Sequence record: OR228459.1
Strand: one strand, 5' to 3'
Source of the DNA: Klebsiella phage fENko-Kae01
DNA length: 64,000 nt
This document shows positions 3,529 to 64,000 of this stretch, piece after piece (the stretch's first letter is position 1; every line of letters starts with the position of its first letter). The position numbers and the translations under genes were made by a program. The notes beneath the pieces are model-generated. The model had not been told where the DNA came from. It worked only from the letters and a program-made list of their open reading frames with translations, and made no database searches.

Positions 3529-3604
3529 GCGTCTATCGTATAGTGGCCTAATATCACTGGTTTCCACCCAGTAGACCGGGATTCGAATTCCCGTAGACGC
3601 TCCA
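3529..3604 (+). tRNA. tRNA-Gly (anticodon TCC)
   Basis: Acceptor GCGTCTA/TAGACGC, D stem GTAT/ATAT, anticodon stem ACTGG/CCAGT with loop TTTCCAC, T arm CGGGA-TTCGAAT-TCCCG, CCA. Confidence 0.8.
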
Positions 3605-6812: not shown

Positions 6813-6895
6813 GCGGGTATGGGGGAACTGGTAGACCCGACGTGCTTAAAACACGTTTCGCAAGAGTGAGGATTCGAATTCCTCTACCCGCACCA
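6813..6895 (+). tRNA. tRNA-Leu (anticodon TAA), long variable arm
   Basis: Acceptor GCGGGTA/TACCCGC, anticodon stem ACGTG/CACGT with loop CTTAAAA, 13-nt variable arm, T arm GAGGA-TTCGAAT-TCCTC, CCA. Confidence 0.8.
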
Positions 6896-15719: not shown

Positions 15720-15925
15720 AAGCATGGGTATATGTTGATGGATATGCAAAAGTAGAAGCTGATTTCCCAGAACTACCACGGGTGGGAGATGAAATCTCTA
15801 TTAAAAGCATGACCGACTCATTTGGAACTAAGTACATTGTTGATTATGTACAGCATGAAATTCGCCACGGCGATCTAACAACTAAAGTAACTATTAATAT
15901 CTACACAAAGGAGGTTCCACTATGA
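15716..15925 (+). CDS. hypothetical protein
   Basis: ATGA overlap, 69 aa. Confidence 0.5.
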   Translation: MKAWVYVDGYAKVEADFPELPRVGDEISIKSMTDSFGTKYIVDYVQHEIRHGDLTTKVTINIYTKEVPL

Positions 15926-16395
15926 TTCTCTCGTGTATTGCAATTTTAATTCTATTCTGTGTGATTCTTTCTTGGACTGATTTACATTCACACGTAGGGT
16001 ATGCTTTCTATGTAGCAAAGAATGAAGGATGGCATCTATTTCCAATTGTTTGGTTTCAATCATTCTTTCTACCTACAGCATTTTTACGTAGTGGTAAGTC
16101 TGCTTTTGATTATACTGAATTGTCCAAATTGGAACGTACACTAAGGGCGTACTTTAGTAACGAGGAAGGAATCGAAGCAGAATGGGAATCACGGCGTGGA
16201 CAGTATTTTGAAATCAGTCGTAAGGGATTTAAAGGAATTCGTTTCCATATACCAAAAGATGATAGTGTTTCAATCAATGGTTATGATCGCTTAGTTCCAC
16301 CACGCCTAGCATTTTTGATGCTAGCATGTGCTAAACAGATTGTAAACGATCATAAAAAGAAAAAAAATACGAGTGAAAAACCACTTTTCAGTTGA
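15922..16395 (+). CDS. hypothetical membrane protein
   Basis: N-terminal TM helix; ATGA overlap. Confidence 0.55.
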   Translation: MILSCIAILILFCVILSWTDLHSHVGYAFYVAKNEGWHLFPIVWFQSFFLPTAFLRSGKSAFDYTELSKLERTLRAYFSNEEGIEAEWESRRGQYFEISRKGFKGIRFHIPKDDSVSINGYDRLVPPRLAFLMLACAKQIVNDHKKKKNTSEKPLFS

Positions 16396-52394: not shown

Positions 52395-52580
52395 AAAGTA
52401 CTAAAAAGTACTACACACCTTTTTTACAAAGTACCATTCAACCTTTTTCCCGAAAGTACTCCATCCTAAATCCCAATCCTAGAAATTTTGGAGTACCCTC
52501 CAACCTCCAGCTAAAATCTCAAAAGTACTCCATCCTAAATCTGAATCAACAAAATGCTGGACAACCATTCAGTACTAAAT
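52395..52580. repeat. iteron-like AGTACT-containing direct repeats (two exact copies of AAAGTACTCCATCCTAAATC 69 bp apart)
   Basis: 52453-52472 and 52522-52541 identical; additional AAAGTACT/GAGTACC units at ~25-35 bp spacing. Confidence 0.6.
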
Positions 52581-52728: not shown

Positions 52729-53064
52729 ACACGGCATGGAAGATGTGGTGAGTTATCATCCTGACTTCTGTCTTGTTTATGAAAATAGATTGAAACAGTA
52801 CTAACACGTTTATAACAACGTAACAGTACTGATATGAAGTGAAAAGTATTACCCACCAGCTTAAGCTGGTGGATGTGGTTAGAATAATAAGAAGGGGAAT
52901 CCCCAATCATACGATGAACTATATTCAATTCTACCAGTACTGCGAATAGTTACTCCACAAGAATGAGAAGACTGTTGTAGTACTGAACTTTTTATGACGA
53001 GAAAATTTGAATAGATTTTGGGTGTACTTATCCTGTACTCTGGACGGATTAAGGGCGTGTTTGA

Positions 53065-53150
53065 TTCTCATTCGCATATAAGAATGATAAACTTTCTCAA
53101 CATGAGAATGGTTCTCAGTTGCAAATAAGAATAGTTCTCAAATGAGAATA
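53065..53150. promoter_or_regulatory. four operator-like TTCTCA...(G/A)AGAAT inverted-repeat sites at ~25-bp spacing
   Basis: TTCTCAacaTGAGAA and TTCTCAaaTGAGAA palindromes plus two longer-spacer versions. Confidence 0.5.
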
Positions 53151-53314
53151 ATAATGATTATCGTTTTCAGTACTAGACTAATTTTTCCATTGGCTAGCCT
53201 ACCGCGACGGAATATAATATTCCGGCAGTATCACGAATCAGCTTGTTTTAAATCTGCCGTTATTATCTCAATATCTGGGTAGAATGTCAAGCTAATATTT
53301 TAAAAAATAAATGC

Positions 53315-53343
53315 TTGACACGTTGGCAGTACTTTGCTATTAT
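53315..53343 (+). promoter_or_regulatory. promoter TTGACA-N17-TATTAT driving non-coding IR-element transcript
   Basis: Perfect -35; no protein-size ORF before next promoter. Confidence 0.6.
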
Positions 53344-53370
53344 ATACACATAGCAAGAACAATGCTCAAG

Positions 53371-53458
53371 CCCACAGGGTGCGGAGGTGTATTCGTTAAA
53401 AGCTAAATGCGAATGATTATCATTTCGCTCATATGATACATTTCCGCACCCTCTAGGG
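53371..53458 (+). ncRNA. IR-element (CCCACAGGGTGCGG ... AATGATTATCATT ... CCGCACCCTCTAGGG), putative structured sRNA
   Basis: Homologous copy in inverted orientation at 59647-59726; flanked by convergent promoters. Confidence 0.45.
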
Positions 53459-53485
53459 TCTCCGCTTTCTCGCGTCTATATAGTA

Positions 53486-53514
53486 ATTATACGGTAATGC
53501 GGTTTATGCGTCAA
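53486..53514 (-). promoter_or_regulatory. minus-strand promoter (AAAAGTACTTGACG-N17-TATAAT) converging on IR element
   Basis: Reverse complement of 53486-53526 gives consensus promoter. Confidence 0.55.
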
Positions 53515-53591
53515 GTACTTTTTTAAAGAAAATCGAAAATAATTTAGTACTATATGTATATAAGGAAGGAAAAAGAATTTTCAAAAAGTAC

Positions 53592-53620
53592 TTGCATTCT
53601 AATTTAACCTATTGCATAAT
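53592..53620 (+). promoter_or_regulatory. early promoter AAAAAGTACTTGCAT-N17-CATAAT
   Basis: First of ~22 early promoters sharing AAAAGTACTTG(A/C)(C/A)(A/T) upstream box. Confidence 0.6.
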
Positions 53621-53664
53621 AGCTACATCGAAACGAGATACACAAACACATTAAGGAAAACGAT

Positions 53665-53898
53665 ATGATTCGCATTGTTCGCATTAATTACTCTACCGGT
53701 GAAGCTGATAAAGTAGCGGTTATTGTATCAGAAAAGAATGATGATCATCTACACAATACGCTGATGCGTTTTGTTAGTGCGGTTGACCGTTGGGCTAGTA
53801 TTGAGTACTTAGAAACGTTTAAAGTCCCTGCCGTCCAGCTTAACGGGCATGATATTAAAGCAATTTGGAATGCTGACGAAATGATCGCGAACATGTAA
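53665..53898 (+). CDS. hypothetical early protein
   Basis: 77 aa, TTAAGGAAAACGATATG leader. Confidence 0.55.
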   Translation: MIRIVRINYSTGEADKVAVIVSEKNDDHLHNTLMRFVSAVDRWASIEYLETFKVPAVQLNGHDIKAIWNADEMIANM

Positions 53899-53924
53899 TT
53901 ATTTCAAGTACTATCAAAATTTAC

Positions 53925-53952
53925 TTGACTTACTTTGATAGTACTTTATAAT
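53925..53952 (+). promoter_or_regulatory. early promoter, class B UTR (ACTTACATACAAACGAAGTACTATTAAGGAAA)
   Basis: TTGACT-N16-TATAAT. Confidence 0.6.
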
Positions 53953-53989
53953 ACTTACATACAAACGAAGTACTATTAAGGAAAGCATT

Positions 53990-54121
53990 ATGATCACTAT
54001 CGAGAAAATCCGTTTAGCAGTAGAAGAACTGATCGCGGCTGGCTGGATTGTCGCAGAAAGTGAAGAAGAAATTAACATTGTAGTAAATGGTATGTATTCA
54101 GTTATGACAAACGTGGAGTAA
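53990..54121 (+). CDS. small hypothetical early protein (43 aa)
   Basis: ATG after conserved TTAAGGAAAGCATT leader; below ORF-track cutoff. Confidence 0.4.
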   Translation: MITIEKIRLAVEELIAAGWIVAESEEEINIVVNGMYSVMTNVE

Positions 54122-54138
54122 GTTAGTATTAAAAGTAC

Positions 54139-54167
54139 TTGCATTTACTTAGCGAGTACTTTATAAT
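54139..54167 (+). promoter_or_regulatory. early promoter, class B UTR
   Basis: TTGCAT-N17-TATAAT. Confidence 0.6.
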
Positions 54168-54203
54168 ACTTACATACAAACGAAACACTATTAAGGAAAT
54201 ATC

Positions 54204-54821
54204 ATGGAAAACATTATCGACGTTATCAAGTCTGTTTCTTATGCTGATCTGAATGAAGCACAAAAAGAAAAAGCTATTGAGATCATGCGAGAGTTAGAGA
54301 ATCAAGAAATGACTCCGTTTTGGTCTGTAGATATTACTGATCAATGGAAAGAAACTTTAGACACTGAATACGGCATTACTGATGCAGTGATTTATTGGTC
54401 TGGTTTTTGTTCACAAGGTGACGGTGCATCGATTAGTACTGAATACTATATTGATATTGAGAAGTTTTTACGTAAATGTAAAGCGTGGTCAAAATTCCGT
54501 GTACTGCACAAAATTATTGACCGTGAAGAAATTCATGCTAAGATTGATCGTAGCTCAAGCCGTTACAATCATGAAAACACTGTAAGCGGTAGCGTAGAGC
54601 TTGATTATAACATTGATTGGACGGCGAAGCAGGAAAGCGAAGCTGAACGCTTAGAAGAATTTTTGACCGAAACTATTCGCGAACTTTCTTGTAAGCTGTA
54701 TAAAGAACTTGATAATGAGAATGATTATCAAAACAGCGATGATGCCCTTTGGTCTACCATTGAAGCAAATGAATATGATTTTGCTGTAAACTCAAACGGC
54801 GACGTTTTGCGTATCGCCTAA
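54204..54821 (+). CDS. acidic early protein
   Basis: 205 aa, very D/E-rich. Confidence 0.6.
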   Translation: MENIIDVIKSVSYADLNEAQKEKAIEIMRELENQEMTPFWSVDITDQWKETLDTEYGITDAVIYWSGFCSQGDGASISTEYYIDIEKFLRKCKAWSKFRVLHKIIDREEIHAKIDRSSSRYNHENTVSGSVELDYNIDWTAKQESEAERLEEFLTETIRELSCKLYKELDNENDYQNSDDALWSTIEANEYDFAVNSNGDVLRIA

Positions 54822-54837
54822 AGTACTGACATACTGT

Positions 54838-54869
54838 AAAACGCTCTATAACGCATTGTAGGGCGTTTT
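54838..54869 (+). terminator. rho-independent terminator
   Basis: AAAACGC...GGGCGTTTT. Confidence 0.5.
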
Positions 54870-54926
54870 AAGGAATAGCAGTATCATTTATCATCTTAAT
54901 TAATTAAACGGCGTAGACGGCGATTT

Positions 54927-55097
54927 ATGAGCAAACAAGATATATTGAAAGGGGATGTTTTATACTGGTTAGATCCTGATGATGGGATCTGTTCTGGATG
55001 GGTAACAGTATTAGACGTTAATACTACAGTACTGGTAAAAGGTGCAACGGCAGAATTTGAAGTGCTACCCGAAGAACTTTATTCGCATGAAGTTTAA
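54927..55097 (+). CDS. small hypothetical protein (56 aa)
   Basis: ATG ORF between terminator and next promoter; weak RBS. Confidence 0.4.
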   Translation: MSKQDILKGDVLYWLDPDDGICSGWVTVLDVNTTVLVKGATAEFEVLPEELYSHEV

Positions 55098-55104
55098 AAA
55101 GTAC

Positions 55105-55162
55105 TTGCAAAGTAAATCTAAAAGCGTATAATGATTTGCATAGGGGGAAACATCTTCCCCCC
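55105..55162 (+). promoter_or_regulatory. early promoter + class A 5'UTR hairpin (GGGGGAA-ACATC-TTCCCCC)
   Basis: TTGCAA-N16-TATAAT; hairpin starts ~+10, followed by ACTATTAAGAGAAACGATT-ATG. Confidence 0.65.
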
Positions 55163-55181
55163 ACTATTAAGAGAAACGATT

Positions 55182-55622
55182 ATGACTATCTACTATCTGA
55201 CTTATAAAACCGCCGACAATGTAACTGATGCTAATGTGACCGCAAACACGGTACAGGAAGCAATGGAAGTACTGAAAGCGGAACTACCTGATATTCAGAT
55301 CGTTTGTGTAGTTGATACCGAAACGAATCTTAAAACTATTATTGACCACTATGATTATTTCCGTGGGCGTAAGTTACAGGACTGGTATCATATCGAAATA
55401 GAAACACGTGAACTACCAGAAGAACAACAGCACTTTGAGCAGGGTACTAGCATTTGGGTTACTACCGATAAACGCATATATTTCTGTTCACGCATACACG
55501 TTAACAAGCGTGTTAAAATTGGGGCAGATTCATATAGTGGACTGTTTACAAATAGTAACCTACTAAATGACAAGTACATAAAAGTTTATGAGCGTTTTGG
55601 AACTGATATTTACGCTTCATAA
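55182..55622 (+). CDS. hypothetical early protein
   Basis: Start set to ATG after class A leader (MTIYYLTYK...). Confidence 0.6.
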   Translation: MTIYYLTYKTADNVTDANVTANTVQEAMEVLKAELPDIQIVCVVDTETNLKTIIDHYDYFRGRKLQDWYHIEIETRELPEEQQHFEQGTSIWVTTDKRIYFCSRIHVNKRVKIGADSYSGLFTNSNLLNDKYIKVYERFGTDIYAS

Positions 55623-55630
55623 TATCACAA

Positions 55631-55660
55631 AGGGGAAGCAATTGCTTCCCTGTTTATTTG
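55631..55660. terminator. bidirectional terminator
   Basis: AGGGGAAGC-AATT-GCTTCCCCT + TTTATTT. Confidence 0.7.
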
Positions 55661-55703
55661 TACAGTACTATAATCTATAGATACAATACCGCACCCCGTG
55701 GGC

Positions 55704-55754
55704 TAATGTGTTTTCATGGGTATTATTATGCCAGTACTACAAACATTTGTCAAT
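55704..55754 (-). ncRNA. leaderless mini-ORF (MKTH*) small transcription unit with own promoter
   Basis: Minus strand: TTGACA-N18-ATAATA, TSS at ATG, ATGAAAACACATTAG, then CCCACGGGGTGCGG arm and the bidirectional terminator. Confidence 0.45.
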
Positions 55755-55931
55755 CATTATTTTCAATTAATTTAAACGCACTGTAACACTGTATAAGGCG
55801 TTTTGTTATTAAGGTAAGCAAACGTATTGAGTACTATCTAAAAGGCCGTTGTGGGCTTGCTGGTGGCGTTGTGTTGTAGTATTGAAATATAAGGAAAATA
55901 TAAAAAAGGCTGTCAATGATTAAAAAAGTAC

Positions 55932-55960
55932 TTGACGGATTGATTTAGTACTGTCATAAT
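55932..55960 (+). promoter_or_regulatory. early promoter without downstream ORF (possible sRNA promoter)
   Basis: AAAAAAGTACTTGACG-N17-CATAAT; next promoter 140 bp downstream. Confidence 0.5.
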
Positions 55961-56072
55961 GTATCACATAGAGCGGCGGGATGGATAAACATTCCTAAGT
56001 AGACAGCCAGTAAGTCATACGAAAGACTGGTGCCGAACTGAAAGAAAGATTGAAAAGAGTTTTAAAAAGTAC

Positions 56073-56101
56073 TTGACAAGCTGGTGGGAAATTGAGATAA
56101 T
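56073..56101 (+). promoter_or_regulatory. early promoter
   Basis: AAAAAGTACTTGACA-N17-GATAAT. Confidence 0.6.
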
Positions 56102-56151
56102 GACCCCGTAGACAGCAAACAACCTAATTAAACTTTAAGAGGAAATATACA

Positions 56152-56739
56152 ATGACTACTACTACTGAAAATGCACGTGTTACCCTGAAATCTGCACTGG
56201 AAGCTGGCGACGTTAAAACCCTTGCTGTTATCCTTGCGAAAGTTGGTCATGATAAAGACGGCGTATCTAAATTGGGCTTGACTTTCTCACTGGCGGTTAA
56301 GGAAGCGAAGGAAGTACTTAAAGAGCAAGCCAAAGCAGCAGAAGAAGCTGCACGTCAGGCAGCAGAACGCCGCGAAGCTAAAAAGGCTGCACGTCAAGCC
56401 GAAGAAGAAAAGCGTCAGGCTGAGATCAAGGCAGAAAAAGAAAATATGCTCAAGTTCCTCATGGATACGGTTAACGGTATGGGCTTAGACCTTGAGGCGG
56501 CAGAAGCGGCAGCAGAAGCGGCAATTGTTAAAAAGTACGGCGATGTTAACAAAGTACCTAAGTATACTTTTAACCGTGTAGCGGTGATTGTAGACGGTAA
56601 AGAATACAACATGCCAACTTCTGGGAACATGGTAGAAGTACTTAAAAATGCACTTGAAGCAAGCGGTAAATCGCGTAAAGAGTTTATCATCGAACACGCG
56701 AAAGACAAGGCAGAAGCGGAAGCGGCATTCGCTGAATAA
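56152..56739 (+). CDS. Ala/Glu/Lys-rich coiled-coil early protein
   Basis: 195 aa; AKAAEEAARQAAERREAKKAARQAEEEKRQAEIKAEKE. Confidence 0.6.
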   Translation: MTTTTENARVTLKSALEAGDVKTLAVILAKVGHDKDGVSKLGLTFSLAVKEAKEVLKEQAKAAEEAARQAAERREAKKAARQAEEEKRQAEIKAEKENMLKFLMDTVNGMGLDLEAAEAAAEAAIVKKYGDVNKVPKYTFNRVAVIVDGKEYNMPTSGNMVEVLKNALEASGKSRKEFIIEHAKDKAEAEAAFAE

Positions 56740-56757
56740 TAACAGTACTAAACTATA

Positions 56758-56784
56758 GGCGGCCTAAGTGGTCGCCTTTTTTTA
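56758..56784 (+). terminator. rho-independent terminator
   Basis: GGCGGCC-TAAGT-GGTCGCC + T7. Confidence 0.65.
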
Positions 56785-56797
56785 ATTGGGGGATTAT

Positions 56798-57058
56798 ATG
56801 GCTGTAGGATTCGCGAAAGACGGGGCAGAACAAGACGAGATTTTAGCGGTCATAAACGCCGCTGTAAGCCACGCAAGGAATCAGATAGGGGATAGTACTA
56901 TTACAAGTAGAACGCACTGCCTAGACTGTTCTAGGACTATTCCTGAGCGTAGACGGGAAGTAGTAAAGGGTGTTAAGTACTGCGTAGAGTGTCAGGCTGA
57001 TCATGATAGTATATTTAAAAGAGATCCGCGTAATTGTTGGCACAGATCTATGAGATAG
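56798..57058 (+). CDS. TraR/DksA-family C4 zinc-finger protein
   Basis: CLDCSRTIPERRREVVKGVKYCVECQ matches TraR/DksA C4 finger; start set at ATG after GGGGGA. Confidence 0.7.
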   Translation: MAVGFAKDGAEQDEILAVINAAVSHARNQIGDSTITSRTHCLDCSRTIPERRREVVKGVKYCVECQADHDSIFKRDPRNCWHRSMR

Positions 57059-57061
57059 TAC

Positions 57062-57118
57062 TTGACATACTTTCTGATTAAAGTATAATGATTTGCATAG
57101 AGGGAAACATCTTCCTTC
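57062..57118 (+). promoter_or_regulatory. early promoter + class A UTR hairpin (variant GAGGGAAACATCTTCCTTC)
   Basis: TTGACA-N16-TATAAT. Confidence 0.65.
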
Positions 57119-57139
57119 ACTAATTAAGGAAATAGAATC

Positions 57140-57412
57140 ATGCGTACACCAATGACCCGCGAAGAAATACACACAGTACTGACAACTAACATTCAGGACT
57201 GGAAGAAATACGCAGATATTAACGAAGCTCAAGACTTGAACAATGAGCTAGATGGTGAAGATCTGGACGTAATTTGTTCCCCTGAGTTTTATGATGATAT
57301 TCATTCCGATGATGATGTTTGGAATGTACTGGAAAAGCATTTCCTCGATACTGATTTAAGTATCTACTCGCGTGATACTTTTATTTTAATTCACAACATT
57401 TATAACAAATAA
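57140..57412 (+). CDS. acidic early protein
   Basis: 90 aa, D/E-rich. Confidence 0.55.
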   Translation: MRTPMTREEIHTVLTTNIQDWKKYADINEAQDLNNELDGEDLDVICSPEFYDDIHSDDDVWNVLEKHFLDTDLSIYSRDTFILIHNIYNK

Positions 57413-57415
57413 TTG

Positions 57416-57472
57416 TTGACTTACTTATATAGTACTGTATAATGGTTTGCATAGGGGGAAACATCTTCCCCC
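57416..57472 (+). promoter_or_regulatory. early promoter + class A UTR hairpin
   Basis: TTGACT-N16-TATAAT; GGGGGAAACATCTTCCCCC. Confidence 0.65.
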
Positions 57473-57491
57473 ATCAATTAAGGAAAAGAAA

Positions 57492-57701
57492 ATGACTCGA
57501 TACACTGTAGAAGTACGTACTACTAAAAACATTGCTACTGATGTGATTCGTTATTATAAGATGGTTTGTGGTGTTGCTCGCCGTATTAGTAAAGCGGATT
57601 ATGACAAGCTGGATCGCGAAGCTGATGGTATGGATTGTTTTTATACAGTAAACACAAAAACGCATACAAAGCAATTTAAAACATTGTCTTATTACATGTA
57701 A
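57492..57701 (+). CDS. hypothetical early protein
   Basis: ATG after AAGGAAAAGAAA leader. Confidence 0.55.
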   Translation: MTRYTVEVRTTKNIATDVIRYYKMVCGVARRISKADYDKLDREADGMDCFYTVNTKTHTKQFKTLSYYM

Positions 57702-57719
57702 AAAGTTTTACTCCAGTAC

Positions 57720-57748
57720 TTGACAATAGATGCGAGTACTGGCATAAT
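57720..57748 (+). promoter_or_regulatory. early promoter, class B UTR
   Basis: TTGACA-N17-CATAAT. Confidence 0.6.
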
Positions 57749-57784
57749 AACTTTATTGAAACGAAATACTATTAAGGAAATATC

Positions 57785-57832
57785 ATGGCTAATCTCATTG
57801 TTCGATTGTATGAAGATTGTTTCTACTTTTAG
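57785..57832 (+). CDS. 15-codon mini-ORF (MANLIVRLYEDCFYF) at consensus early start site
   Basis: Occupies position of a normal early gene start after ATTAAGGAAATATC; shares MAN start with gene at 58259. Confidence 0.3.
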   Translation: MANLIVRLYEDCFYF

Positions 57833-57862
57833 TATTGTGGGAAACCTATATCCGTTAAAGAG

Positions 57863-58174
57863 ATGATCGCATCGGGCTATATGTTATCTAAGCATGATCA
57901 CACTGGATTCATGGCTGAAATGGTTGCGGCTAGTTATAAGTTTGGTGAAGAATGGGAAGCACAATATTTTCCGGCTGTCAATGCAATGATTAAGCGGTTG
58001 GCAGAACACACTGAGTTTATGGAATTTTGGACTGTTTTAAAAATGGTTGACGTGAATCAGAATGGGGAAACGTGTCAGCCATACGCACATTTTGACGCTG
58101 GGGAAGATATTAGCACAATTTGGAAATGGTTGGAAGATAAATTTACAACAATTAAAATTGCAGATTACTTGTAA
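57863..58174 (+). CDS. hypothetical early protein
   Basis: 103 aa, AAAGAG RBS. Confidence 0.5.
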   Translation: MIASGYMLSKHDHTGFMAEMVAASYKFGEEWEAQYFPAVNAMIKRLAEHTEFMEFWTVLKMVDVNQNGETCQPYAHFDAGEDISTIWKWLEDKFTTIKIADYL

Positions 58175-58180
58175 AAGTAC

Positions 58181-58239
58181 TTGCATTACTATCTGAAAAG
58201 CGTATAATGGTTTGCATAGGGGGAAACATCTTCCCCCAC
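58181..58239 (+). promoter_or_regulatory. early promoter + class A UTR hairpin
   Basis: TTGCAT-N16-TATAAT; GGGGGAAACATCTTCCCCC. Confidence 0.65.
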
Positions 58240-58258
58240 TAACTAAGAGAAGAATATC

Positions 58259-58639
58259 ATGGCTAATCAAATCACTCCAGCACAGACCTTCAATAAATTC
58301 AGTACTGAAATCGTATTGAAAGAGTATGTGCCAGATTATGGTTGGACTGATGCATGTGTATGCACTGATGTAGCAGATGCAAAGCAACGCATTAAAGATT
58401 ATCGTGCGGAGGGTTTACAGGTTAAAACTGCCCGTCGCCGTGTACTTAACAAAGATGCTTTCTTATGTCAAGCTCTTTTAAACTTCTGCCGTGACTACTA
58501 TCGCCGTACTGGTGGATTATGGCCTAATGAGGTTGAAGTACTGAAATCTAACGGTAAAGTAAAATTTACCTTGACTTTAAAAGAAATTGAGGAAGTACTT
58601 GGTGATGATTGTTTTTTAGTAACTTCACAGCCAGCATAA
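58259..58639 (+). CDS. hypothetical early protein
   Basis: 126 aa. Confidence 0.6.
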   Translation: MANQITPAQTFNKFSTEIVLKEYVPDYGWTDACVCTDVADAKQRIKDYRAEGLQVKTARRRVLNKDAFLCQALLNFCRDYYRRTGGLWPNEVEVLKSNGKVKFTLTLKEIEEVLGDDCFLVTSQPA

Positions 58640-58647
58640 AAAAGTAC

Positions 58648-58681
58648 TTGACACATAACGGGGATATGATACAATATCCCC
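58648..58681 (+). promoter_or_regulatory. early promoter with -10 (TACAAT) in loop of GGGGATAT/ATATCCCC hairpin
   Basis: TTGACA-N16-TACAAT; 8-bp perfect stem. Confidence 0.55.
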
Positions 58682-58708
58682 ATATTGAAAAGTAATGGAA
58701 GTACTGAA

Positions 58709-58900
58709 ATGAATTATCAAAAGGTTAGCAAGCGAGTAGTTGAACTCTCTAAGAAAGCACGTAAAGAGTATACCTTAGAACGTTCAATTAACAACTATCA
58801 TTTAAAGCAAGGTGATAAGTTTATTGTTATTGACGAACCTTTGGAAATCGTGTATATTGTAGTTAATGCGATGATTCGTGATAAAACGAGGATTAAGTAA
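58709..58900 (+). CDS. hypothetical early protein
   Basis: Start set to ATG (MNYQKVSK...); ORF-track start is TTG. Confidence 0.5.
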   Translation: MNYQKVSKRVVELSKKARKEYTLERSINNYHLKQGDKFIVIDEPLEIVYIVVNAMIRDKTRIK

Positions 58901-59155
58901 ATGCGTACATTAGACCAACTTATTGACCCTAATACGTCAGCACGTCGATCAATGGTTACTATCGGCGGTAATGGTAAACAACACTGGAGTGGTTACATTT
59001 GCTTTATTGTTGGTGGAAAAATGTATGAGCGGGTAGTATATCACAAAGAGATTAATTATATACTATTCCGTAAAGAAGTCATAGCAGTCGATCCTACCGC
59101 CCTAAAACCGATTGCAGGGGCATGGAACAAAGAATCGCTGTACCTTACAGCTTAA
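58901..59155 (+). CDS. hypothetical protein
   Basis: TAAATG junction, 84 aa. Confidence 0.5.
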   Translation: MRTLDQLIDPNTSARRSMVTIGGNGKQHWSGYICFIVGGKMYERVVYHKEINYILFRKEVIAVDPTALKPIAGAWNKESLYLTA

Positions 59156-59204
59156 CCAATAAAAGGCCGCTACGTGCGGCCTATCGCGTTCTAGAGGGTA
59201 TATT

Positions 59205-59393
59205 ATGAATACTGTACAAGTACTAGATGAGATTGAAAAAATTGTTGACAGTACTAACAAACGTGATATACTGTTATCAAGAAATAAGGCTAACCAGTAC
59301 GAAAAGAATTGCGTACAATCTGCACTAGGGGGTAACTTTGAATCGCTACACTCAACCATACTTCAAGGGAATAACAACCGCCCACCAGCGTAA
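59205..59393 (+). CDS. hypothetical protein
   Basis: 62 aa, GAGGGTATATTATG RBS. Confidence 0.4.
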   Translation: MNTVQVLDEIEKIVDSTNKRDILLSRNKANQYEKNCVQSALGGNFESLHSTILQGNNNRPPA

Positions 59394-59595
59394 AAAGAAA
59401 CTACACATAGTACAGAAACGAAAGCGTAAAGTACTTAAACTTAAACCAACATATAGTTGGGGATTGTCGTGGGATGAAATCAATCACGGACTATCATGGA
59501 ATCAATTATATGTTATTGGCTCAAGTGTTGGACGCTTTCATTTTAGTACTATATCACGACAAGAAACACGTGTAAACCCATATAAAAGTACTTGA
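59338..59595 (+). CDS. very basic small protein, +1-frame overlap with upstream ORF
   Basis: 85 aa, K/R-rich; 56-nt overlap around CTAGGGGGTAAC. Confidence 0.3.
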   Translation: MNRYTQPYFKGITTAHQRKKKLHIVQKRKRKVLKLKPTYSWGLSWDEINHGLSWNQLYVIGSSVGRFHFSTISRQETRVNPYKST

Positions 59596-59633
59596 CATAT
59601 ATCCGGCTTAGTGAGATAATACTTACAAGCCGG
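59592..59633 (+). promoter_or_regulatory. early promoter with -10 (GATAAT) in loop of CCGGCTT/AAGCCGG hairpin
   Basis: TTGACA-N17-GATAAT; no ORF downstream. Confidence 0.55.
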
Positions 59634-59646
59634 AGAAACGGCGTGA

Positions 59647-59726
59647 CCCATAGGGTGCGAAGAAGTAATCAGTACTTGAGAATGATAATCATTTACAACA
59701 CTAGACAGATTTATGCACCCGATGGG
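59647..59726 (-). ncRNA. IR-element (minus orientation): CCCATCGGGTGCA ... AATGATTATCATT ... CGCACCCTATGGG
   Basis: Homolog of 53371-53458; downstream of leaderless mini-ORF on minus strand. Confidence 0.45.
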
Positions 59727-59776
59727 TTAGATTGTTTTCATGCATATATAATATCAAAGTACTGTTATAGTGTCAA
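59727..59776 (-). ncRNA. leaderless mini-ORF (MKTI*) unit with own promoter
   Basis: Minus strand TTGACA-N17-TATTAT, TSS at ATG, ATGAAAACAATCTAA. Confidence 0.45.
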
Positions 59777-59810
59777 GCATTTTTATTTGATAATTATTTT
59801 AAAAAAAGTC

Positions 59811-59838
59811 TTGCATTACTTTCTGAATAACGTATAAT
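59811..59838 (+). promoter_or_regulatory. early promoter, class B UTR
   Basis: TTGCAT-N16-TATAAT. Confidence 0.6.
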
Positions 59839-59869
59839 ACTTACATCAACCACTGAGAGGAAAGAAACA

Positions 59870-60241
59870 ATGTCTATTAAGCGTATTGTATTTGGTCGCG
59901 GTGCAAGTGAAGAAGTAGTACCTGTTGAACTGATCGCGATGTTAAATGAAATGATTCGCCGTGGTGATATTAATTTTAGTCCTGATGTAATGCCTTATGC
60001 GATTTCGTATGAGGTGCGTAAAAGTCCTAAGTACTGGAAGATTGACCGTGTAGAATTGGACAAAGAAACCGGAGAGATTCGCGAGTTTGGGCGTAGTTCT
60101 GTTGGTGCTGTAGATTTTGAAGGGAACGTGTTTAAATCTGCCAGCTATAAAGCCGTTGCTAAGGGTATCCGTGGAAACATCTTTGTTAACAATGGTTTTA
60201 GTGCAATTACTGGTGACGGATATATTCGTTATTTAAATTAA
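59870..60241 (+). CDS. hypothetical early protein
   Basis: 123 aa. Confidence 0.6.
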   Translation: MSIKRIVFGRGASEEVVPVELIAMLNEMIRRGDINFSPDVMPYAISYEVRKSPKYWKIDRVELDKETGEIREFGRSSVGAVDFEGNVFKSASYKAVAKGIRGNIFVNNGFSAITGDGYIRYLN

Positions 60242-60247
60242 AAAGTA

Positions 60248-60308
60248 CTTGCAAAGTAATCTGATTAGCGTATAATGTTTTACATAGAGAGGGGAAATAG
60301 TTTCCCCT
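60248..60308 (+). promoter_or_regulatory. early promoter + class A UTR hairpin (covariant GAGGGGAAA-TAG-TTTCCCCTC)
   Basis: TTGCAA-N16-TATAAT; compensatory base changes preserve stem. Confidence 0.65.
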
Positions 60309-60328
60309 CCATATTAAGGAAAAGTATC

Positions 60329-60565
60329 ATGGCACAGAAAATCACTCGCGATAACGTAGAATTTTACATTGATATCCTGAATACTAAACTTGAAAAGATG
60401 GGTGCTCCACTACGTTACAAAATGATCCCTGTTGCTGGTGGTTATGAGTTGCAAAAGTACAAGGGTGATATTCAGGTTGATTATTGTGTATCTGGTCAAA
60501 AACTCCGTGAAGTTTATGAGATTGTACGTTTTGCAGCTAACATGATTTCGGATAACGTGAAGTAA
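60329..60565 (+). CDS. hypothetical early protein
   Basis: Start set to ATG after leader (MAQKITRDNV...). Confidence 0.55.
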   Translation: MAQKITRDNVEFYIDILNTKLEKMGAPLRYKMIPVAGGYELQKYKGDIQVDYCVSGQKLREVYEIVRFAANMISDNVK

Positions 60566-60584
60566 TTATTATCAAAAAGTACTA

Positions 60585-60613
60585 TTGACAGAAACATGAT
60601 AGTACTTTATAAT
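60585..60613 (+). promoter_or_regulatory. early promoter, class B UTR
   Basis: TTGACA-N17-TATAAT. Confidence 0.6.
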
Positions 60614-60645
60614 ACTTACATCAATTAAGCAAAGAGGAAAACAAA

Positions 60646-60951
60646 ATGCAAATGTCTAACCTGTATGTAGCTCACATCACTATGCGTCATGGTGAATATG
60701 AAACACTGGTTAAACGTCTGATTATTGCTAAGAGTTTAGCAGAGGCAGAATTATACGCCTATGAAGAAGGGATGGCAACATTTGACGGTAGCGAATTAGA
60801 AGATAAATCCAGCTATCAAGAAGCGGATCAACCTCATACGTGGTATTTCTCAGGCGGGGATTGGTGCGTTACTCTTAATGCAGTTACATGGATTGAGGAT
60901 CGCGAAACAGCTAAAGTAATTGCTAAATCTGATTTACTGTCTTATCTGTAA
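60646..60951 (+). CDS. hypothetical early protein
   Basis: 101 aa. Confidence 0.55.
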   Translation: MQMSNLYVAHITMRHGEYETLVKRLIIAKSLAEAELYAYEEGMATFDGSELEDKSSYQEADQPHTWYFSGGDWCVTLNAVTWIEDRETAKVIAKSDLLSYL

Positions 60952-60957
60952 AAGTAC

Positions 60958-60990
60958 TTGACAACCTTTCGGGGGTAGGATATACTATCC
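60958..60990 (+). promoter_or_regulatory. early promoter with -10 (TATACT) inside GGATA/TATCC hairpin
   Basis: TTGACA-N17-TATACT. Confidence 0.55.
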
Positions 60991-61018
60991 CCATCAATTA
61001 AGCAAAGAGAGAAACAAA

Positions 61019-61429
61019 ATGTTTAAAATTACTAGCGTAGAAAAAAGCGGCGATTCCATGATTGTAAGTGCTTTCTGGAATGATGCTTGTCAAGTATCTA
61101 TTAGCTTTAATCAAATGGGCGTAGTACAATCCTGTACTTTCGCAGAGGATACCAAAGAGCGAGCACAATTAGAAGATCATGCACGTTCGGTAATTAAATT
61201 CAATATTCCTATTGAAATGGAACCTAATATCATTTATACTGATGATCAGGTCGAGCAAATGAAACGTTGGTATGAATCTTTGATTAAAGCGGAAAAGGTC
61301 ATTGCAGAAATGGATCAATGTATCGTTGAAGCTGATTGGTTATCTGATATGTTCGGGCAAACATCCGGTAGCATTATTGATGCCCTGTTTAATGTTCGTG
61401 CGGCGTTAGATCCTCGCATCAATCAATAA
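61019..61429 (+). CDS. hypothetical early protein
   Basis: 136 aa. Confidence 0.6.
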   Translation: MFKITSVEKSGDSMIVSAFWNDACQVSISFNQMGVVQSCTFAEDTKERAQLEDHARSVIKFNIPIEMEPNIIYTDDQVEQMKRWYESLIKAEKVIAEMDQCIVEADWLSDMFGQTSGSIIDALFNVRAALDPRINQ

Positions 61430-61432
61430 AGA

Positions 61433-61472
61433 AAAAAGGGGTTGACTTCGGTCGCCCCTTTTGTTATTATAT
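61433..61472 (+). promoter_or_regulatory. UUCG-hairpin terminator/promoter element (GGGGTTGAC-TTCG-GTCGCCCC, TATTAT)
   Basis: Only copy in the early region; stem has compensatory changes. Confidence 0.6.
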
Positions 61473-61548
61473 AGTCATTGGCAGATAAGCTACTAACCCA
61501 TAGGGTGCAATAGTCTGTCTGTAGTATTTTAGTACTGAAAAATAGTTC

Positions 61549-61576
61549 TTGCTTTTATGTGCTGGTGGTGTATAAT
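61549..61576 (+). promoter_or_regulatory. promoter with weak -35 (TTGCTT) and TATAAT
   Basis: UTR ACTTGTATTGAAAC... shared with promoter at 63471. Confidence 0.45.
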
Positions 61577-61606
61577 ACTTGTATTGAAACAAACGAGGGT
61601 TCAATT

Positions 61607-61768
61607 ATGGAACATGATTTTGATTCATCGGATTTTGAGTTGGCTAGTGATTATGCATGGCATCTTATGCAAAAAGAAGGTAAATCCGAAACTGATGCAT
61701 TAATGCAGGCGGCTAACCAATATAATATTAATTACGTATCATTACAAGGATATTGGGATCAAGCATAA
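61607..61768 (+). CDS. small hypothetical protein
   Basis: Start set to ATG after GAGGGTTCAATT. Confidence 0.5.
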   Translation: MEHDFDSSDFELASDYAWHLMQKEGKSETDALMQAANQYNINYVSLQGYWDQA

Positions 61769-61775
61769 AAAGTAC

Positions 61776-61832
61776 TTGCATTACATATTCAGTACTGTAT
61801 AATGGTTTGCATAGGGAAAAACAACTTCCCCC
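61776..61832 (+). promoter_or_regulatory. early promoter + class A UTR hairpin (variant GGGAAAAACAACTTCCC)
   Basis: TTGCAT-N16-TATAAT. Confidence 0.65.
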
Positions 61833-61852
61833 ACTAATTAAGGAAATGAATT

Positions 61853-62317
61853 ATGAATAGCATCCAGTTCGTAGAAGCCATTGAAAAAGAATTCCTGTCA
61901 GTATTTCCTAACGGTTTCTTTATTGCCCGACCTTTACCGTTGGGCGGTGATGTAGGGATCACTATGGGACTGACTCGCGAACAGGCCGATTGTCCTCATA
62001 ATATCCGTGATAATGATCGTATGCGTATGACCTTCGCGATCCACGGTATGAAGTTTGGGGATAGTGAAGATTATAACGACAAGTTAATTATGGAACCGTA
62101 CTATTCAGCGATTAGCACGATTCCACGCAAGCCATACTACGCTATGGGACACGATAAGATCAAGACACGCAAAACCACTAACACGCCGGAAAAATTGATT
62201 GTAACGCTTTCTAAGTACATTAAAACCGCAGGGCAGCAAGTAAAAGAGCTAGCAGAAGTAAACGAGATTTATCAGCAGGAACAGATTAAACCTCAGTACT
62301 TAGAAATTAACGTGTAA
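61853..62317 (+). CDS. hypothetical early protein
   Basis: 154 aa. Confidence 0.6.
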   Translation: MNSIQFVEAIEKEFLSVFPNGFFIARPLPLGGDVGITMGLTREQADCPHNIRDNDRMRMTFAIHGMKFGDSEDYNDKLIMEPYYSAISTIPRKPYYAMGHDKIKTRKTTNTPEKLIVTLSKYIKTAGQQVKELAEVNEIYQQEQIKPQYLEINV

Positions 62318-62333
62318 TTATTATCAAAAGTAC

Positions 62334-62362
62334 TTTACAAATACAGTAGAGTACTTTATAAT
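62334..62362 (+). promoter_or_regulatory. early promoter, class B UTR
   Basis: TTTACA-N17-TATAAT. Confidence 0.55.
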
Positions 62363-62394
62363 ACTTACATCAATTAAGCAAAGAGGGTTACAAA

Positions 62395-62619
62395 ATGGCG
62401 GCTAAAACTTTTGAACAGTTAAAATGGGTTGCTGGTCAAATCACTGATGATCTGATGTATTCCCGAATGAATGAAGCAGTACTAAAAACCGTTTTCAATC
62501 GCCGGACTAAATCTACTGAAATGGCTACCTTATGCGGCCTTGTATGTGCTAGTGCAATGGAACGTAAAATTAATACAGAAGTAATTGAGCGTTATTTACG
62601 CAACGTACATACTGAGTAA
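62395..62619 (+). CDS. hypothetical early protein
   Basis: 74 aa. Confidence 0.55.
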   Translation: MAAKTFEQLKWVAGQITDDLMYSRMNEAVLKTVFNRRTKSTEMATLCGLVCASAMERKINTEVIERYLRNVHTE

Positions 62620-62635
62620 TTATTATCAAAAGTAC

Positions 62636-62664
62636 TTTACAAATATAGTAGAGTACTTTATAAT
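62636..62664 (+). promoter_or_regulatory. early promoter, class B UTR
   Basis: TTTACA-N17-TATAAT; whole 62320-62395 block duplicated at 62620-62697. Confidence 0.55.
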
Positions 62665-62696
62665 ACTTACATCAATTAAGCAACGGGATTTATACT

Positions 62697-62927
62697 ATGG
62701 ATAATCGTGAAATCATTGCTCAAGTACTGACACGTATTTTAATGTCAACTCGACTTTCACAGGTACGCAACATCACAGCCGCACATGAAAATACATGGCG
62801 TGAAGCCTTAAATGGTAGTAATGCAAGTCAGCTAGCGGCGGATAATAAGCTGAAAGAAGTTATCAAGTCTGCTATGGCAGAATTGAATGATGATGCAGTA
62901 AATTATGTTTTAAATTCTTTCAAATAG
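62697..62927 (+). CDS. hypothetical early protein
   Basis: 76 aa. Confidence 0.55.
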   Translation: MDNREIIAQVLTRILMSTRLSQVRNITAAHENTWREALNGSNASQLAADNKLKEVIKSAMAELNDDAVNYVLNSFK

Positions 62928-62930
62928 TAA

Positions 62931-62987
62931 TTGCATTACTTCTGAAATAACGTATAATGGTTTGCATAGGGGGAAACAACTTCCCCC
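62931..62987 (+). promoter_or_regulatory. early promoter + class A UTR hairpin
   Basis: TTGCAT-N16-TATAAT; GGGGGAAACAACTTCCCCC. Confidence 0.65.
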
Positions 62988-63007
62988 ACTAATTAAGGAA
63001 ATATAAT

Positions 63008-63316
63008 ATGATTGCTAACGTTCAAGCCAACTTTGAAAACCAATTCATCAATGAAATATTGCGACTGGATGATGGGGTCGCACGTATTAACTACGGTTTT
63101 AACTCCGGTGGTTATGAAAGTAACGTGTACTTTTATACTGCTGACGGTGGTACACTGGCAATCGATACGGTAATTGTTGAAATACAAAAAGTAAACTTCA
63201 ATGATGAAAATGATCCACAGTGGTATATCATCGGCTATGACGTGAACTATGAAGATCAAGATCTTTATGACTCACATACAGGCCAGCAAATCATTCCCGC
63301 TTATGGGGATGAATAA
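63008..63316 (+). CDS. hypothetical early protein
   Basis: 102 aa. Confidence 0.55.
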   Translation: MIANVQANFENQFINEILRLDDGVARINYGFNSGGYESNVYFYTADGGTLAIDTVIVEIQKVNFNDENDPQWYIIGYDVNYEDQDLYDSHTGQQIIPAYGDE

Positions 63317-63323
63317 TAACACA

Positions 63324-63353
63324 AAGGGGAGCTAACACTCCCCTGTTTATTTG
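63324..63353. terminator. bidirectional terminator
   Basis: GGGGAG-CTAACA-CTCCCC + TGTTTATTT. Confidence 0.65.
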
Positions 63354-63395
63354 TACAGTACTAAATCATATAGATACAATTCCGCACCCTGTGGG

Positions 63396-63446
63396 TTAGA
63401 TTGTTTTCATGACAATAATTATACTTAAAATCGGGTGACGTGTCAA
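63396..63446 (-). ncRNA. leaderless mini-ORF (MKTI*) unit with own promoter
   Basis: Minus strand TTGACA-N17-TATAAT, ATGAAAACAATCTAA at TSS, CCCACAGGGTGCGG arm, ends at bidirectional terminator. Confidence 0.45.
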
Positions 63447-63470
63447 GCATTTATTTTATTAAAAACGTAC

Positions 63471-63498
63471 TTGCAATTTTTCAGTACTGTAGTATAAT
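63471..63498 (+). promoter_or_regulatory. early promoter
   Basis: TTGCAA-N16-TATAAT; back-to-back with minus promoter at 63441. Confidence 0.6.
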
Positions 63499-63531
63499 AC
63501 TTGTATTGAAACGAGATAAGGGAAACACAAA

Positions 63532-64000
63532 ATGATTACACAAATCTATCACGGCAGCACCCGTTTTGATACTGCTGGTGGATATAAAGGCGGCAAGCCT
63601 AACAGCTTTCAATATGGTGTAGGTCTGTATTGTACTAATGCTTACTTGTGGGCTGAGAAGTACGGTCGAAGTGTTTATGTATTAGATGTGGAACTCAAAC
63701 CAGAACACCACGCCGACAATGTAGAAATTACAATTGAAAACTTGCAATATTGGGTTAACTGCTATTGCTCGCAAAAAGTAGCAAAGATCTTTAAAAAGGA
63801 ATTCAGCCAGCGTAAAACTATGACTGCAAATCGCTTTGAATTGTGGTTGTACTGGAATGTAAGACGCTTTAAACCAATCGCCGTACAATTAGCTGCTTTC
63901 TTTGCTGCACAAGGTGTAACCCATAATAGCGAGGTTGGCAATTATGGTGGTAAACTCATTCGTATCTATGACTTTGATATTATCAAAGGTTACACAAAGG
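63532..64000 (+). CDS. YHGST-motif protein, partial (paralog of 3638-4330), runs off window
   Basis: MITQIYHGSTRFDTAGGYKGG...GVGLYCTNAYLWAEKYG; no stop before 64000. Confidence 0.6.
   Translation, partial: MITQIYHGSTRFDTAGGYKGGKPNSFQYGVGLYCTNAYLWAEKYGRSVYVLDVELKPEHHADNVEITIENLQYWVNCYCSQKVAKIFKKEFSQRKTMTANRFELWLYWNVRRFKPIAVQLAAFFAAQGVTHNSEVGNYGGKLIRIYDFDIIKGYTK

Follow-up and report, generated by a model that had tools for sequence, protein, structure and literature searches.

A promoter-plus-leader cassette with an invariant non-coding core recurs across the early region of RaK2-like jumbo phages

The plastic early regions of large myoviruses can contain short repeated modules that combine a terminator with a σ70 promoter, among them the PeSL cassettes of T4-like phages (Arbiol et al. 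2010, PMC2839356; Comeau et al. 2014, PMC4122927). Here we describe a cassette of related design in a 64,000-nt stretch of Klebsiella phage fENko-Kae01 (record OR228459.1; this whole stretch is called the window below) and in other RaK2-like jumbo phages. Each copy consists of a promoter, a 5′ leader, and an invariant core. In PeSLs conservation resides in the promoter and the stem-loop, whereas in the cassettes it resides in a structured, non-coding core of ~30 nt within the predicted transcript; many cassette copies, unlike PeSLs, face away from genes or face each other. Several other known systems share some of these traits. Cassettes that stand alone in antisense to the early genes resemble Hfq-type small RNA (sRNA) genes in their strong promoter, conserved 5′ region, A/U-rich spacer, and fixed-distance terminator, and a multicopy family with a common core recalls Qrr and PrrF; yet the cassette core is also found in putative mRNA leaders and terminator-less pairs, and part of it is a mini-hairpin rather than a linear seed. 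Phage λ nut (boxA/boxB) and HK022 put likewise place a promoter-proximal hairpin beside a conserved linear sequence downstream of early promoters. However, λ nut combines a GNRNA pentaloop with a 5-bp stem and is present twice per genome, whereas the cassettes have 3-5 bp stems with G(A/C)GAAA, AGAUAA, or AGAACAA loops and number ~10 per terminal repeat, and many of them face a terminator close by, at which transcription seems to stop. Among jumbo-phage terminal repeats, the closest precedent for non-coding RNAs (ncRNAs) comes from PA5oct, a distantly related Pseudomonas phage in which such RNAs are highly transcribed (PMC7318152). The two cases agree in the location of non-coding loci, inside a long direct terminal repeat, and in the reliance of the phage on host RNA polymerase, but the PA5oct ncRNAs have no sequence or structural similarity to the cassettes: neither the pattern nor the covariance model described below found the motif in the PA5oct terminal repeat, RNA-seq-defined ncRNAs included.

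The first-pass annotation of the window described convergent promoters flanking a conserved inverted repeat (IR) of ~90 bp. The convergent promoters around CCCACAGGGTGCGG...AATGATTATCATT...CCGCACCCTCTAGGG (pair 1; Table 1) are confirmed and the palindrome exists, but the true unit of conservation is a single promoter-plus-leader cassette, of which each IR arm is an independent copy, because the cassette also stands alone (copies 55702-, 61497+, and 63395-, previously listed as partial arms, are real single copies) and occurs dozens of times in relatives. The two arms of a pair differ at variable positions (ACA vs AGA; ATA vs ATC) with no mutual compensation, and the long palindrome is thus a by-product of head-to-head cassettes. 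From 5′ to 3′, a cassette comprises the promoter, a predicted start ~7 nt past the -10, hairpin 1 or an A-rich leader, the linker nUA, and the core, a ~30-nt element in which the mini-hairpin rCCC-Ayn-GGGU is followed by GCrG-ArnUgUAUCUAU and eight positions are invariant among 68 aligned copies. Hairpin 1 defines a long class, in which it is 5′-terminal and has a stem of 3-5 bp and loops of 6-7 nt; in the short class, which accounts for about one-fifth of copies, its place is taken by an unstructured A-rich leader, e.g., AUGAAAACAAUCUAA. At its end the cassette has only the non-coding core and a tail, with no conserved Shine-Dalgarno sequence or ATG downstream, and 5′-proximal AUGs (MLKPTGCGGVFVKS in copy A; MKTI in the short class) are unconserved between copies.

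The window contains seven cassettes, all between 53.3 and 63.4 kb, arranged as two convergent pairs and three single copies. Matches to CCCNNNGGGTGCR with at most one mismatch number 7 in 64 kb against 1.03 expected, a count reached in none of 100 shuffles. A covariance model, whose seed alignment contains the window copies, recovers exactly these seven (E 8e-11 to 2e-7; the best match is the 63382-63395(-) copy, with 51 bits and E = 8e-11) and nothing further at E <= 1; the 53 kb upstream of 53.3 kb have zero copies by either pattern or model. All seven cores lie 21-28 nt downstream of the -10 of promoters that score 10-12/12, in promoter orientation, and across the window and its relatives every tabulated copy but one sits 21-29 nt past a σ70 -10 in the same orientation. 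The lone exception, found in Muenster, lacks a promoter and lies 29 nt from the terminus; a pattern match in a coding region of XbC2 was discarded. The second convergent pair was proposed to be an inverted recurrence of the first, and the alignment bears this out. Between 53371-53458 and 59647-59726, identity is 67% in direct and 65% in reverse-complement orientation, with scores of +26 and +19 as compared to an average of about -14 (standard deviation ~4.5) for shuffled sequences; once the promoters are included, the reverse complement (69%, score 65) wins over the direct alignment (60%, score 31). Pair 2 is indeed bracketed by two promoters, but its minus promoter is not at 59771, since its hexamers span 59776-59748.

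Table 1. Positions of cassettes, their promoters and cores, and Fur-box-like sites in the window
Feature	Position	Strand	Details
Pair 1 plus promoter (cassette A)	53315-53343	+	TTGACA-17-TATTAT, σ70, 11/12; predicted start ~53350
Cassette A leader	53350-53398	+	hairpin 1 stem 53352-53355/53363-53366, loop AGAACAA; semi-conserved tail to 53398
Cassette A core	53371-53384	+	CCCACAGGGTGCGG; covariance model 48.5 bits, E = 3.5e-10
Fur-box-like palindrome, pair 1 center	53409-53427		CGAAATGATAATCATTCGC, 14/19
Cassette B core	53444-53457	-	CCTAGAGGGTGCGG; covariance model 37.8 bits, E = 2.3e-7
Cassette B leader	53430-53479	-	hairpin 1 CGC-GAGAAA-GCG at 53463-53474; tail after core
Pair 1 minus promoter (cassette B)	53514-53486	-	TTGACG-17-TATAAT, σ70, 11/12
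Pair 2	59592-59776	both	plus promoter 59592-59620, minus promoter 59776-59748, both 11/12; brackets 59647-59726
Pair 2 plus core	59647-59660	+	covariance model E = 1.8e-8
Pair 2 minus core	59713-59726	-	covariance model E = 3.6e-8
Fur-box-like site, pair 2 center	59678-59696		GAGAATGATAATCATTTAC, 16/19
Stand-alone antisense cassette	55625-55753	-	candidate sRNA gene, ~90 nt; promoter 55725-55753, leader short and A-rich, core 55689-55702, terminator 55632-55651 (stem from +52)
Sense cassette	61442-61524	+	promoter 61442-61470, hairpin 1, core 61497-61510
Stand-alone antisense cassette	63318-63446	-	candidate sRNA gene, ~90 nt; promoter 63418-63446 (12/12), core 63382-63395, terminator 63325-63344
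Fur-box-like array	53060-53168 (~110 bp)		overlapping hexamer repeats; 16/19 at 53144 and 53150
Fur-box-like site	54711-54729		17/19; inside open reading frame 54204-54821

At 99.6-99.8% identity, the window matches Salmonella phages 7t3, SE_PL, Munch, and PHA46, RaK2-like jumbo phages with genomes of ~350 kb. Window coordinates correspond approximately to Munch coordinates plus 52,368, which places the start of the Munch record near window position 52,369 and pair 1 ~1 kb inside it. Genes up to 52,038 are on the minus strand; a plus-strand run of small genes, many with their own σ70 promoter and with almost no functional annotation, begins at 53,665; in the ~1.6 kb that separate these blocks no Munch gene is annotated. 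In relatives with mapped ends, the homologous DNA forms the left portion of a direct terminal repeat of 20-22 kb (20,030 bp in Muenster, 21,525 bp in vB_Ec-M-J, and 22,456 bp in CBB); terminal repeats of ~20 kb are reported for this phage group, with one of 19,736 bp in a close relative of Munch (PMC13070987). Cassettes keep to this region: Munch has ten copies in its first 20.3 kb, nine that match the pattern and one degenerate, and none in the following 41.7 kb. Of these ten, the covariance model applied to Munch 13-62 kb finds the three at 15.4, 18.7, and 20.3 kb, and it finds none beyond.

Altogether, 93 non-redundant copies were gathered from RaK2-like jumbo phages, namely from the window and from 25 further loci in Hallingskeid, Eneladusvirus SNUABM_50, BF, and Yen9-04, Alcyoneusvirus Muenster and RaK2, Asteriusvirus vB_Ec-M-J, Mimasvirus CBB and GAP32, and IMG/VR contigs. 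The owners of the cassette are the Munch/7t3-like phages, Eneladusvirus, Alcyoneusvirus, Asteriusvirus, and Mimasvirus. A full-pattern scan of IMG/VR matches only contigs of ~350 kb or shorter contigs with the same cassettes, and a full-core scan of 185,579 bacterial and archaeal genomes returned 0 matches. Between genera, BLAST similarity is limited to pieces of 52-63 bp with 87-96% identity that comprise the -10, leader, and core, whereas the flanks are unalignable; the -10 and leader of cassette A are 87-93% identical over ~60 bp to sequences in several other genera, flanked there too by unalignable DNA, and the leader and -10 of cassette B are 94-96% identical over 52 bp to those in Asteriusvirus coliphages. 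Among Rfam families, only tRNAs reach the gathering score in the window, and at E <= 5 the 52-64 kb interval yields only spurious eukaryotic families at ~20 bits. The element is undescribed in the literature that we searched, which covered the CBB and fEgEco12 genomes, the genera Eneladusvirus and Asteriusvirus, PeSLs, and Fur boxes in lytic phages.

The cassettes show RNA-type covariation. Across the 93 copies, 40 different sequences form the stem of hairpin 1, each stem position is filled by all four types of Watson-Crick pair in one copy or another, and the stem reaches at least 4 bp in 63 of 93 copies, whereas shuffles average 37 such copies and never exceed 50. When copies were aligned without selection or gaps, the proposed pairs had a covariation score of 0.275, as compared to 0.149 for shuffles, none of 500 of which reach 0.275, and at most 0.11 for slid controls; each pair of hairpin 1 shows 15-22 double-sided changes. 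The loops are conserved (GCGAAA in 20 copies, GAGAAA in 13, AGATAA in 10, and AGAACAA in 9). In the mini-hairpin, C-G swaps with U-G in 8-10 copies and once with U-A, and either G or A is found at position -1, opposite an invariant U. These substitutions keep pairing on the sense strand only, which suggests that what is read is RNA, or else the non-template DNA in single-stranded form, rather than duplex DNA. A duplex-DNA operator at +15 to +45, where a host protein or an early or middle protein of the phage would bind to shut off these strong promoters while the RNA has no function of its own, is therefore a poorer fit, even though the spacing and orientation of the core relative to the promoter are fixed, eight core positions are invariant with no covariation, and the early region encodes many small unknown proteins together with a DksA/TraR-type zinc finger. 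Hairpin 1 covaries as RNA does, the C-to-T and G/A changes in the mini-hairpin preserve pairing of the sense strand alone, and the core lacks dyad symmetry; an operator would also leave unexplained the promoters that drive nothing but the motif, i.e., those of pairs and of antisense copies with fixed terminators. We consider this explanation rather unlikely.

Cassettes are found in three genomic contexts, which we surveyed in seven records oriented with the early genes on the plus strand, with terminators sought within 150 nt. The 11 antisense single copies have a terminator in nine cases, and its stem invariably starts at +51 to +53. The nine, which include 55702- and 63395-, come from six records and five genus-level lineages, and their terminator sequences are unrelated across genera despite the same distance, a combination that points to discrete sRNA genes: judged by sequence, antisense single copies look like genes for sRNAs of ~90-105 nt. 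For the two in the window (55.7 and 63.4 kb), the predicted fold consists of a core-proximal hairpin and the terminator. Sense single copies (21) have a terminator-like hairpin in just three dubious cases. They are typically located just past a terminator and 40-150 nt before the next gene's own promoter and would read into that gene; 61497+ has no terminator, and its transcription would run into the promoter of the next gene. Convergent pairs (12, with 24 copies) have core starts 68-86 nt apart and only two weak terminator-like hairpins; the two in the window have no terminator within 150 nt. In the Munch, BF, SNUABM_50, and CBB records, one such pair lies ~1.0 kb after the start.

This distribution bears on the main rival explanation, a cis-acting leader akin to nut or put, in which the nascent stem-loop and core would bind RNA polymerase, alone or together with a phage factor, and promote read-through of early-region terminators. 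Sense copies, just past a terminator and before early genes in a terminator-dense region, are where such a leader would be expected; the element also has a fixed position at ~+15 to +45 of the transcript, in promoter orientation, and its covarying hairpin with a conserved A-rich, GNRA-like loop, reminiscent of boxB, precedes a conserved linear element. However, more than half of copies are either members of pairs or antisense copies with a fixed-distance terminator, contexts that are unfit for read-through, and about one-fifth of copies have no hairpin at all. The 6-7 nt loops are not boxB pentaloops, and no boxA (CGCUCUUA or UGCUCUUUA) accompanies the cassettes; YGCTCTTWA is found once in the window, at 56319(-) within a gene, against 1.6 expected. 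No N-, Q-, or NusG-like gene was identified among the ten neighboring early proteins scanned. Antitermination of this type is thus unlikely, though it ranks first among the alternatives.

In many copies (61442 and, in relatives, most sense copies) the hairpin of an upstream terminator encloses the -35, a layout that is conserved across genera; at 61435-61470 the -35 forms part of the terminator stem and the -10 comes after the T-tract (aaaggggTTGACTtcggtcgcccctttTGtTATTAT). Promoters 53315 and 53514 have A-rich upstream sequences and no hairpin. The nested arrangement is that of the composite PeSLs of T4-like phages (PMC4122927), and cassettes could be mobile terminator-promoter modules of this type, whose repetition serves or results from the shuffling of early genes and whose accidental head-to-head landing created the IR. 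That the region is a block of small, almost wholly unannotated genes agrees with such mobility, as does a degenerate Munch copy (15350-15950; core CCCACAGGGCGGGG) that directly drives an HNH endonuclease gene: the cassette is followed immediately by the ribosome-binding site and start codon, which suggests that the endonuclease is a mobile gene inserted behind a cassette. But the last elements of a PeSL are a Shine-Dalgarno sequence and a start codon, whereas cassettes end in the non-coding core, and recombination homology would neither keep eight invariant positions beside freely varying neighbors across genera, nor hold terminators at +51 to +53, nor put a pair ~1.0 kb into the Munch, BF/SNUABM, and CBB records alike. 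We find this explanation improbable.

The first-pass annotation also proposed that a convergent pair could give rise to a sense/antisense sRNA pair or serve as a recombination or packaging site. The former is compatible with our results, as the predicted transcripts of a pair would overlap by ~115-130 nt and each folds in silico into a long hairpin (-35.5 to -48.1 kcal/mol, z -4.9 to -5.5). The latter is not supported. The position of the IR, ~1 kb into the Munch record and within the terminal repeat of relatives, would suit a site for packaging, terminase, or site-specific recombination kept accessible by transcription, and the promoter-less copy 29 nt from the Muenster terminus might be read in its favor; yet the boundaries of Muenster, vB_Ec-M-J, and CBB share sequences of their own, which lie off cassettes except for that Muenster copy, there is no dif/Xer-like site, and copies are spread over 20 kb. 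As a folded attP of the Xer/dif or CTX-phage type, the IR shares only GGTGCG, and the full pattern (GGTGCGnnnAA, 6-8 bp center, TTATGTTAAAT) has 0 matches with up to three mismatches. A packaging or recombination site is hardly credible. Only slightly better is the case for replication origins akin to T4 oriF and oriG, at which a G-rich RNA would stay on the template and prime bidirectional synthesis. T4 origins work by a transcription-primed R-loop, and RaK2-like phages have T4-like replication genes; a strong promoter, a G-rich non-template stretch, and then an AT-rich center would suit an R-loop, and pairs are near the genome end. Nonetheless, ~10 copies per repeat far exceed the needs of an origin, single copies end at terminators, and the changes of GC skew in the window merely track gene orientation, making this a very improbable role.

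The first-pass annotation missed the central palindrome of the pairs, AATGAT(A/T)ATCATT, which resembles a Fur box. Scored against the 19-bp consensus GATAATGATAATCATTATC, the pair centers AATGATTATCATT and AATGATAATCATT are both Fur-box-like, and the window has four sites of at least 16/19 where 0.07 are expected, all at 53.1-59.7 kb in the early region. An array of such sites (53060-53168) would be crossed by leftward transcripts that head for the genome end from cassette B or from a minus promoter at 53290-53262. Boxes of 15-17/19 are also found at the centers of Munch pair 2, a Hallingskeid pair, and pairs of Eneladusvirus BF and SNUABM_50, and at the Muenster +2386 copy; Muenster has seven sites of at least 15/19 in its first 2.5 kb (787-2446), two of them just downstream of the +2386 copy, and in Hallingskeid, BF, and SNUABM_50 boxes are at or beside the leftmost pairs. 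Fur-like boxes are absent from vB_Ec-M-J (Asteriusvirus) and XbC2, and CBB has only one 15/19 site, at 21.7 kb and off its pairs. The phage arrays share with Fur-repressed loci the overlapping hexamer structure of real Fur sites, but classical boxes overlap the -35 or -10, whereas phage boxes do not: they leave the promoter hexamers free and lie 45-75 nt downstream of both converging starts. Any effect of Fur would therefore be that of a roadblock.

We tentatively favor the view that the cassettes constitute a multicopy family of immediate-early small RNAs and leaders, in which the invariant core is a binding platform for a conserved partner, pairs are self-limiting, and Fur gates the pairs in some lineages. 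We posit that host σ70 RNA polymerase starts ~7 nt past the -10 and produces an RNA in three parts, a 5′ stem-loop or A-rich leader, the mini-hairpin rCCC-Ayn-GGGU, and a single-stranded GCrGArnUgUAUCUAU. The ~30-nt core would be the functional part and would most likely serve as the docking site of a partner, either protein or RNA, whose conservation extends over Enterobacterales hosts or over these phages. Since cassettes are confined to the ~20-kb terminal-repeat early region, these RNAs would be made immediately after infection and in many copies. The core could be deployed in three ways. An antisense copy with its fixed-distance terminator would give a discrete sRNA of ~90-105 nt; a sense copy that follows a terminator and precedes the own promoter of an early gene would present the core as a 5′ leader; and a convergent pair would yield RNAs that overlap by ~115-130 nt, each carrying the complement of its partner's core. 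As each RNA of a pair carries the anti-core of the other, the pair would limit itself through collision of polymerases and through masking of the core, either in a hairpin or in an RNA duplex. In this phage and in several other genera, Fur bound midway between the starts could act as a roadblock and decide whether the anti-core is transcribed, an iron gate. In a bolder version, which we think quite unlikely, the core would be an RNA handle on conserved host machinery, for example one that loads onto or sponges RNA polymerase or an RNA-binding factor, released in a burst from ~20 promoters (~10 per terminal repeat in each of the two repeats per genome) upon entry of the first DNA into the cell, with pairs acting as antidotes that make the anti-core and the Fur operator setting, by the iron status of the cell, whether that anti-core is transcribed.

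Several points weigh against an sRNA and leader family. Transcription is predicted from consensus promoters only. Sense copies, lacking terminators, would be leaders rather than free sRNAs, and convergent pairs have no canonical terminator and hence undefined 3′ ends. The invariance of the core stem, two pairs of which show no covariation, equally fits recognition of RNA, of the non-template DNA strand, or of duplex DNA. A blastn search with the core against 5,426 E. coli genomes found no match, although short seed matches are beyond its sensitivity. Finally, Fur gating is not a general function of the pairs, because boxes are absent from those of Asteriusvirus and CBB.

We also compared the core with known motifs. 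The RfaH ops/JUMPstart element (GGCGGTAGnnTG, 12 nt) was rejected by eye, as the core sequence GCGG-AR-n-TG lacks the flipped-out T and is 2 nt shorter. Also rejected by eye only were a DnaA box, a CsrA GGA motif, a CRISPR-repeat mimic, guanidine-II and preQ1 aptamers, an opposite-strand promoter of the T3/T7 type, and a type I toxin, for which the 5′-proximal AUGs are not conserved. An apparent identity of 9-10 nt between the core and RNase P RNA (AGGGUGCGG), as well as a less exact resemblance to tmRNA, is presumably due to chance. A 48-aa minus-strand reading frame in the leftward transcript (52931-53077) has no ribosome-binding site and looks spurious.

The product of the early gene at 56786-57058 is a C4 zinc-finger protein of the DksA/TraR type (Pfam E = 3e-8); since such proteins bind in the secondary channel of RNA polymerase, it is a candidate early transcription modulator. 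A search for an RNA- or DNA-binding partner among ten neighboring early proteins (Pfam, PHROGs) returned only domains of unknown function besides this zinc finger. At least six early genes in 55100-63025 (repeat families D1-D6) share a leader of ~100 nt that comprises a promoter, a 5′ hairpin GGGGGAAACAUCUUCCCCC, and ACUAAUUAAGGAAA followed by ATG; this leader is a second, PeSL-like cassette family, distinct from the cassette described above. The 1.6-kb non-coding stretch also contains tandem 55-nt direct repeats (52448-52571), 75% identical and 69 nt apart, and the far end of the window has five tRNA genes (Pro, Lys, Glu, Gly, and Leu) at 183-414, 3529-3604, and 6813-6895. The sequence CAGTACTG has 21 occurrences in the whole window against 0.78 expected (e.g., at 52635, 52671, 52824, and 52935), and in most early promoters (AAAAGTACTTGACA) AGTACT lies next to the -35 or within the spacer, while several terminators contain it as well; CAGTACTG/AGTACT may be a recognition or modification motif.

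The ends of the terminal repeat are themselves conserved. Muenster, vB_Ec-M-J, and CBB, which represent three genera, have in common the left end AGTCCGTT..GAAGTCG (positions 1-30) and the right boundary ..GGTAACnCT|TAGCGA (Muenster 20031, vB_Ec-M-J 21526, and CBB 22457); these shared sequences are probably terminase cut sites. A boundary-like sequence, TTAGACGCTTATCGAAAGG, is present at window position 52207. Chi (GCTGGTGG) is enriched nearby, with 13 sites in the window where 0.57 are expected, eight of them within 52.8-63.6 kb (52853-63581), and the top strand of Munch has 11 Chi sites in the first 21 kb vs one in the 41 kb that follow. Chi or its complement is also found within the promoter spacers of cassettes in relatives and in each arm of the terminator at 52851-52874. 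The enrichment may protect the terminal repeat from RecBCD. Taken together, the Fur-box arrays and the Chi enrichment suggest a leading genome end that is adapted to RecBCD and to the iron status of the host, an adaptation that is undescribed for virulent jumbo phages in the literature that we searched.

RaK2-like jumbo phages are under development against Klebsiella, E. coli, Salmonella, and Erwinia, but the 20-kb terminal early region with which their genomes begin is almost uncharacterized. The cassette would be new as a PeSL-like early promoter module with a structured non-coding RNA payload or, equivalently, as a new phage RNA family, and a structured RNA or leader family that is shared across genera offers a concrete entry point into the start of infection. 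As the same invariant core is present in every copy, one antisense oligomer or pull-down bait could address them all, making its function directly testable. If the core were an RNA handle on host machinery and Fur controlled the anti-core, the leading end of the genome would be an iron-sensing switch for early host take-over.

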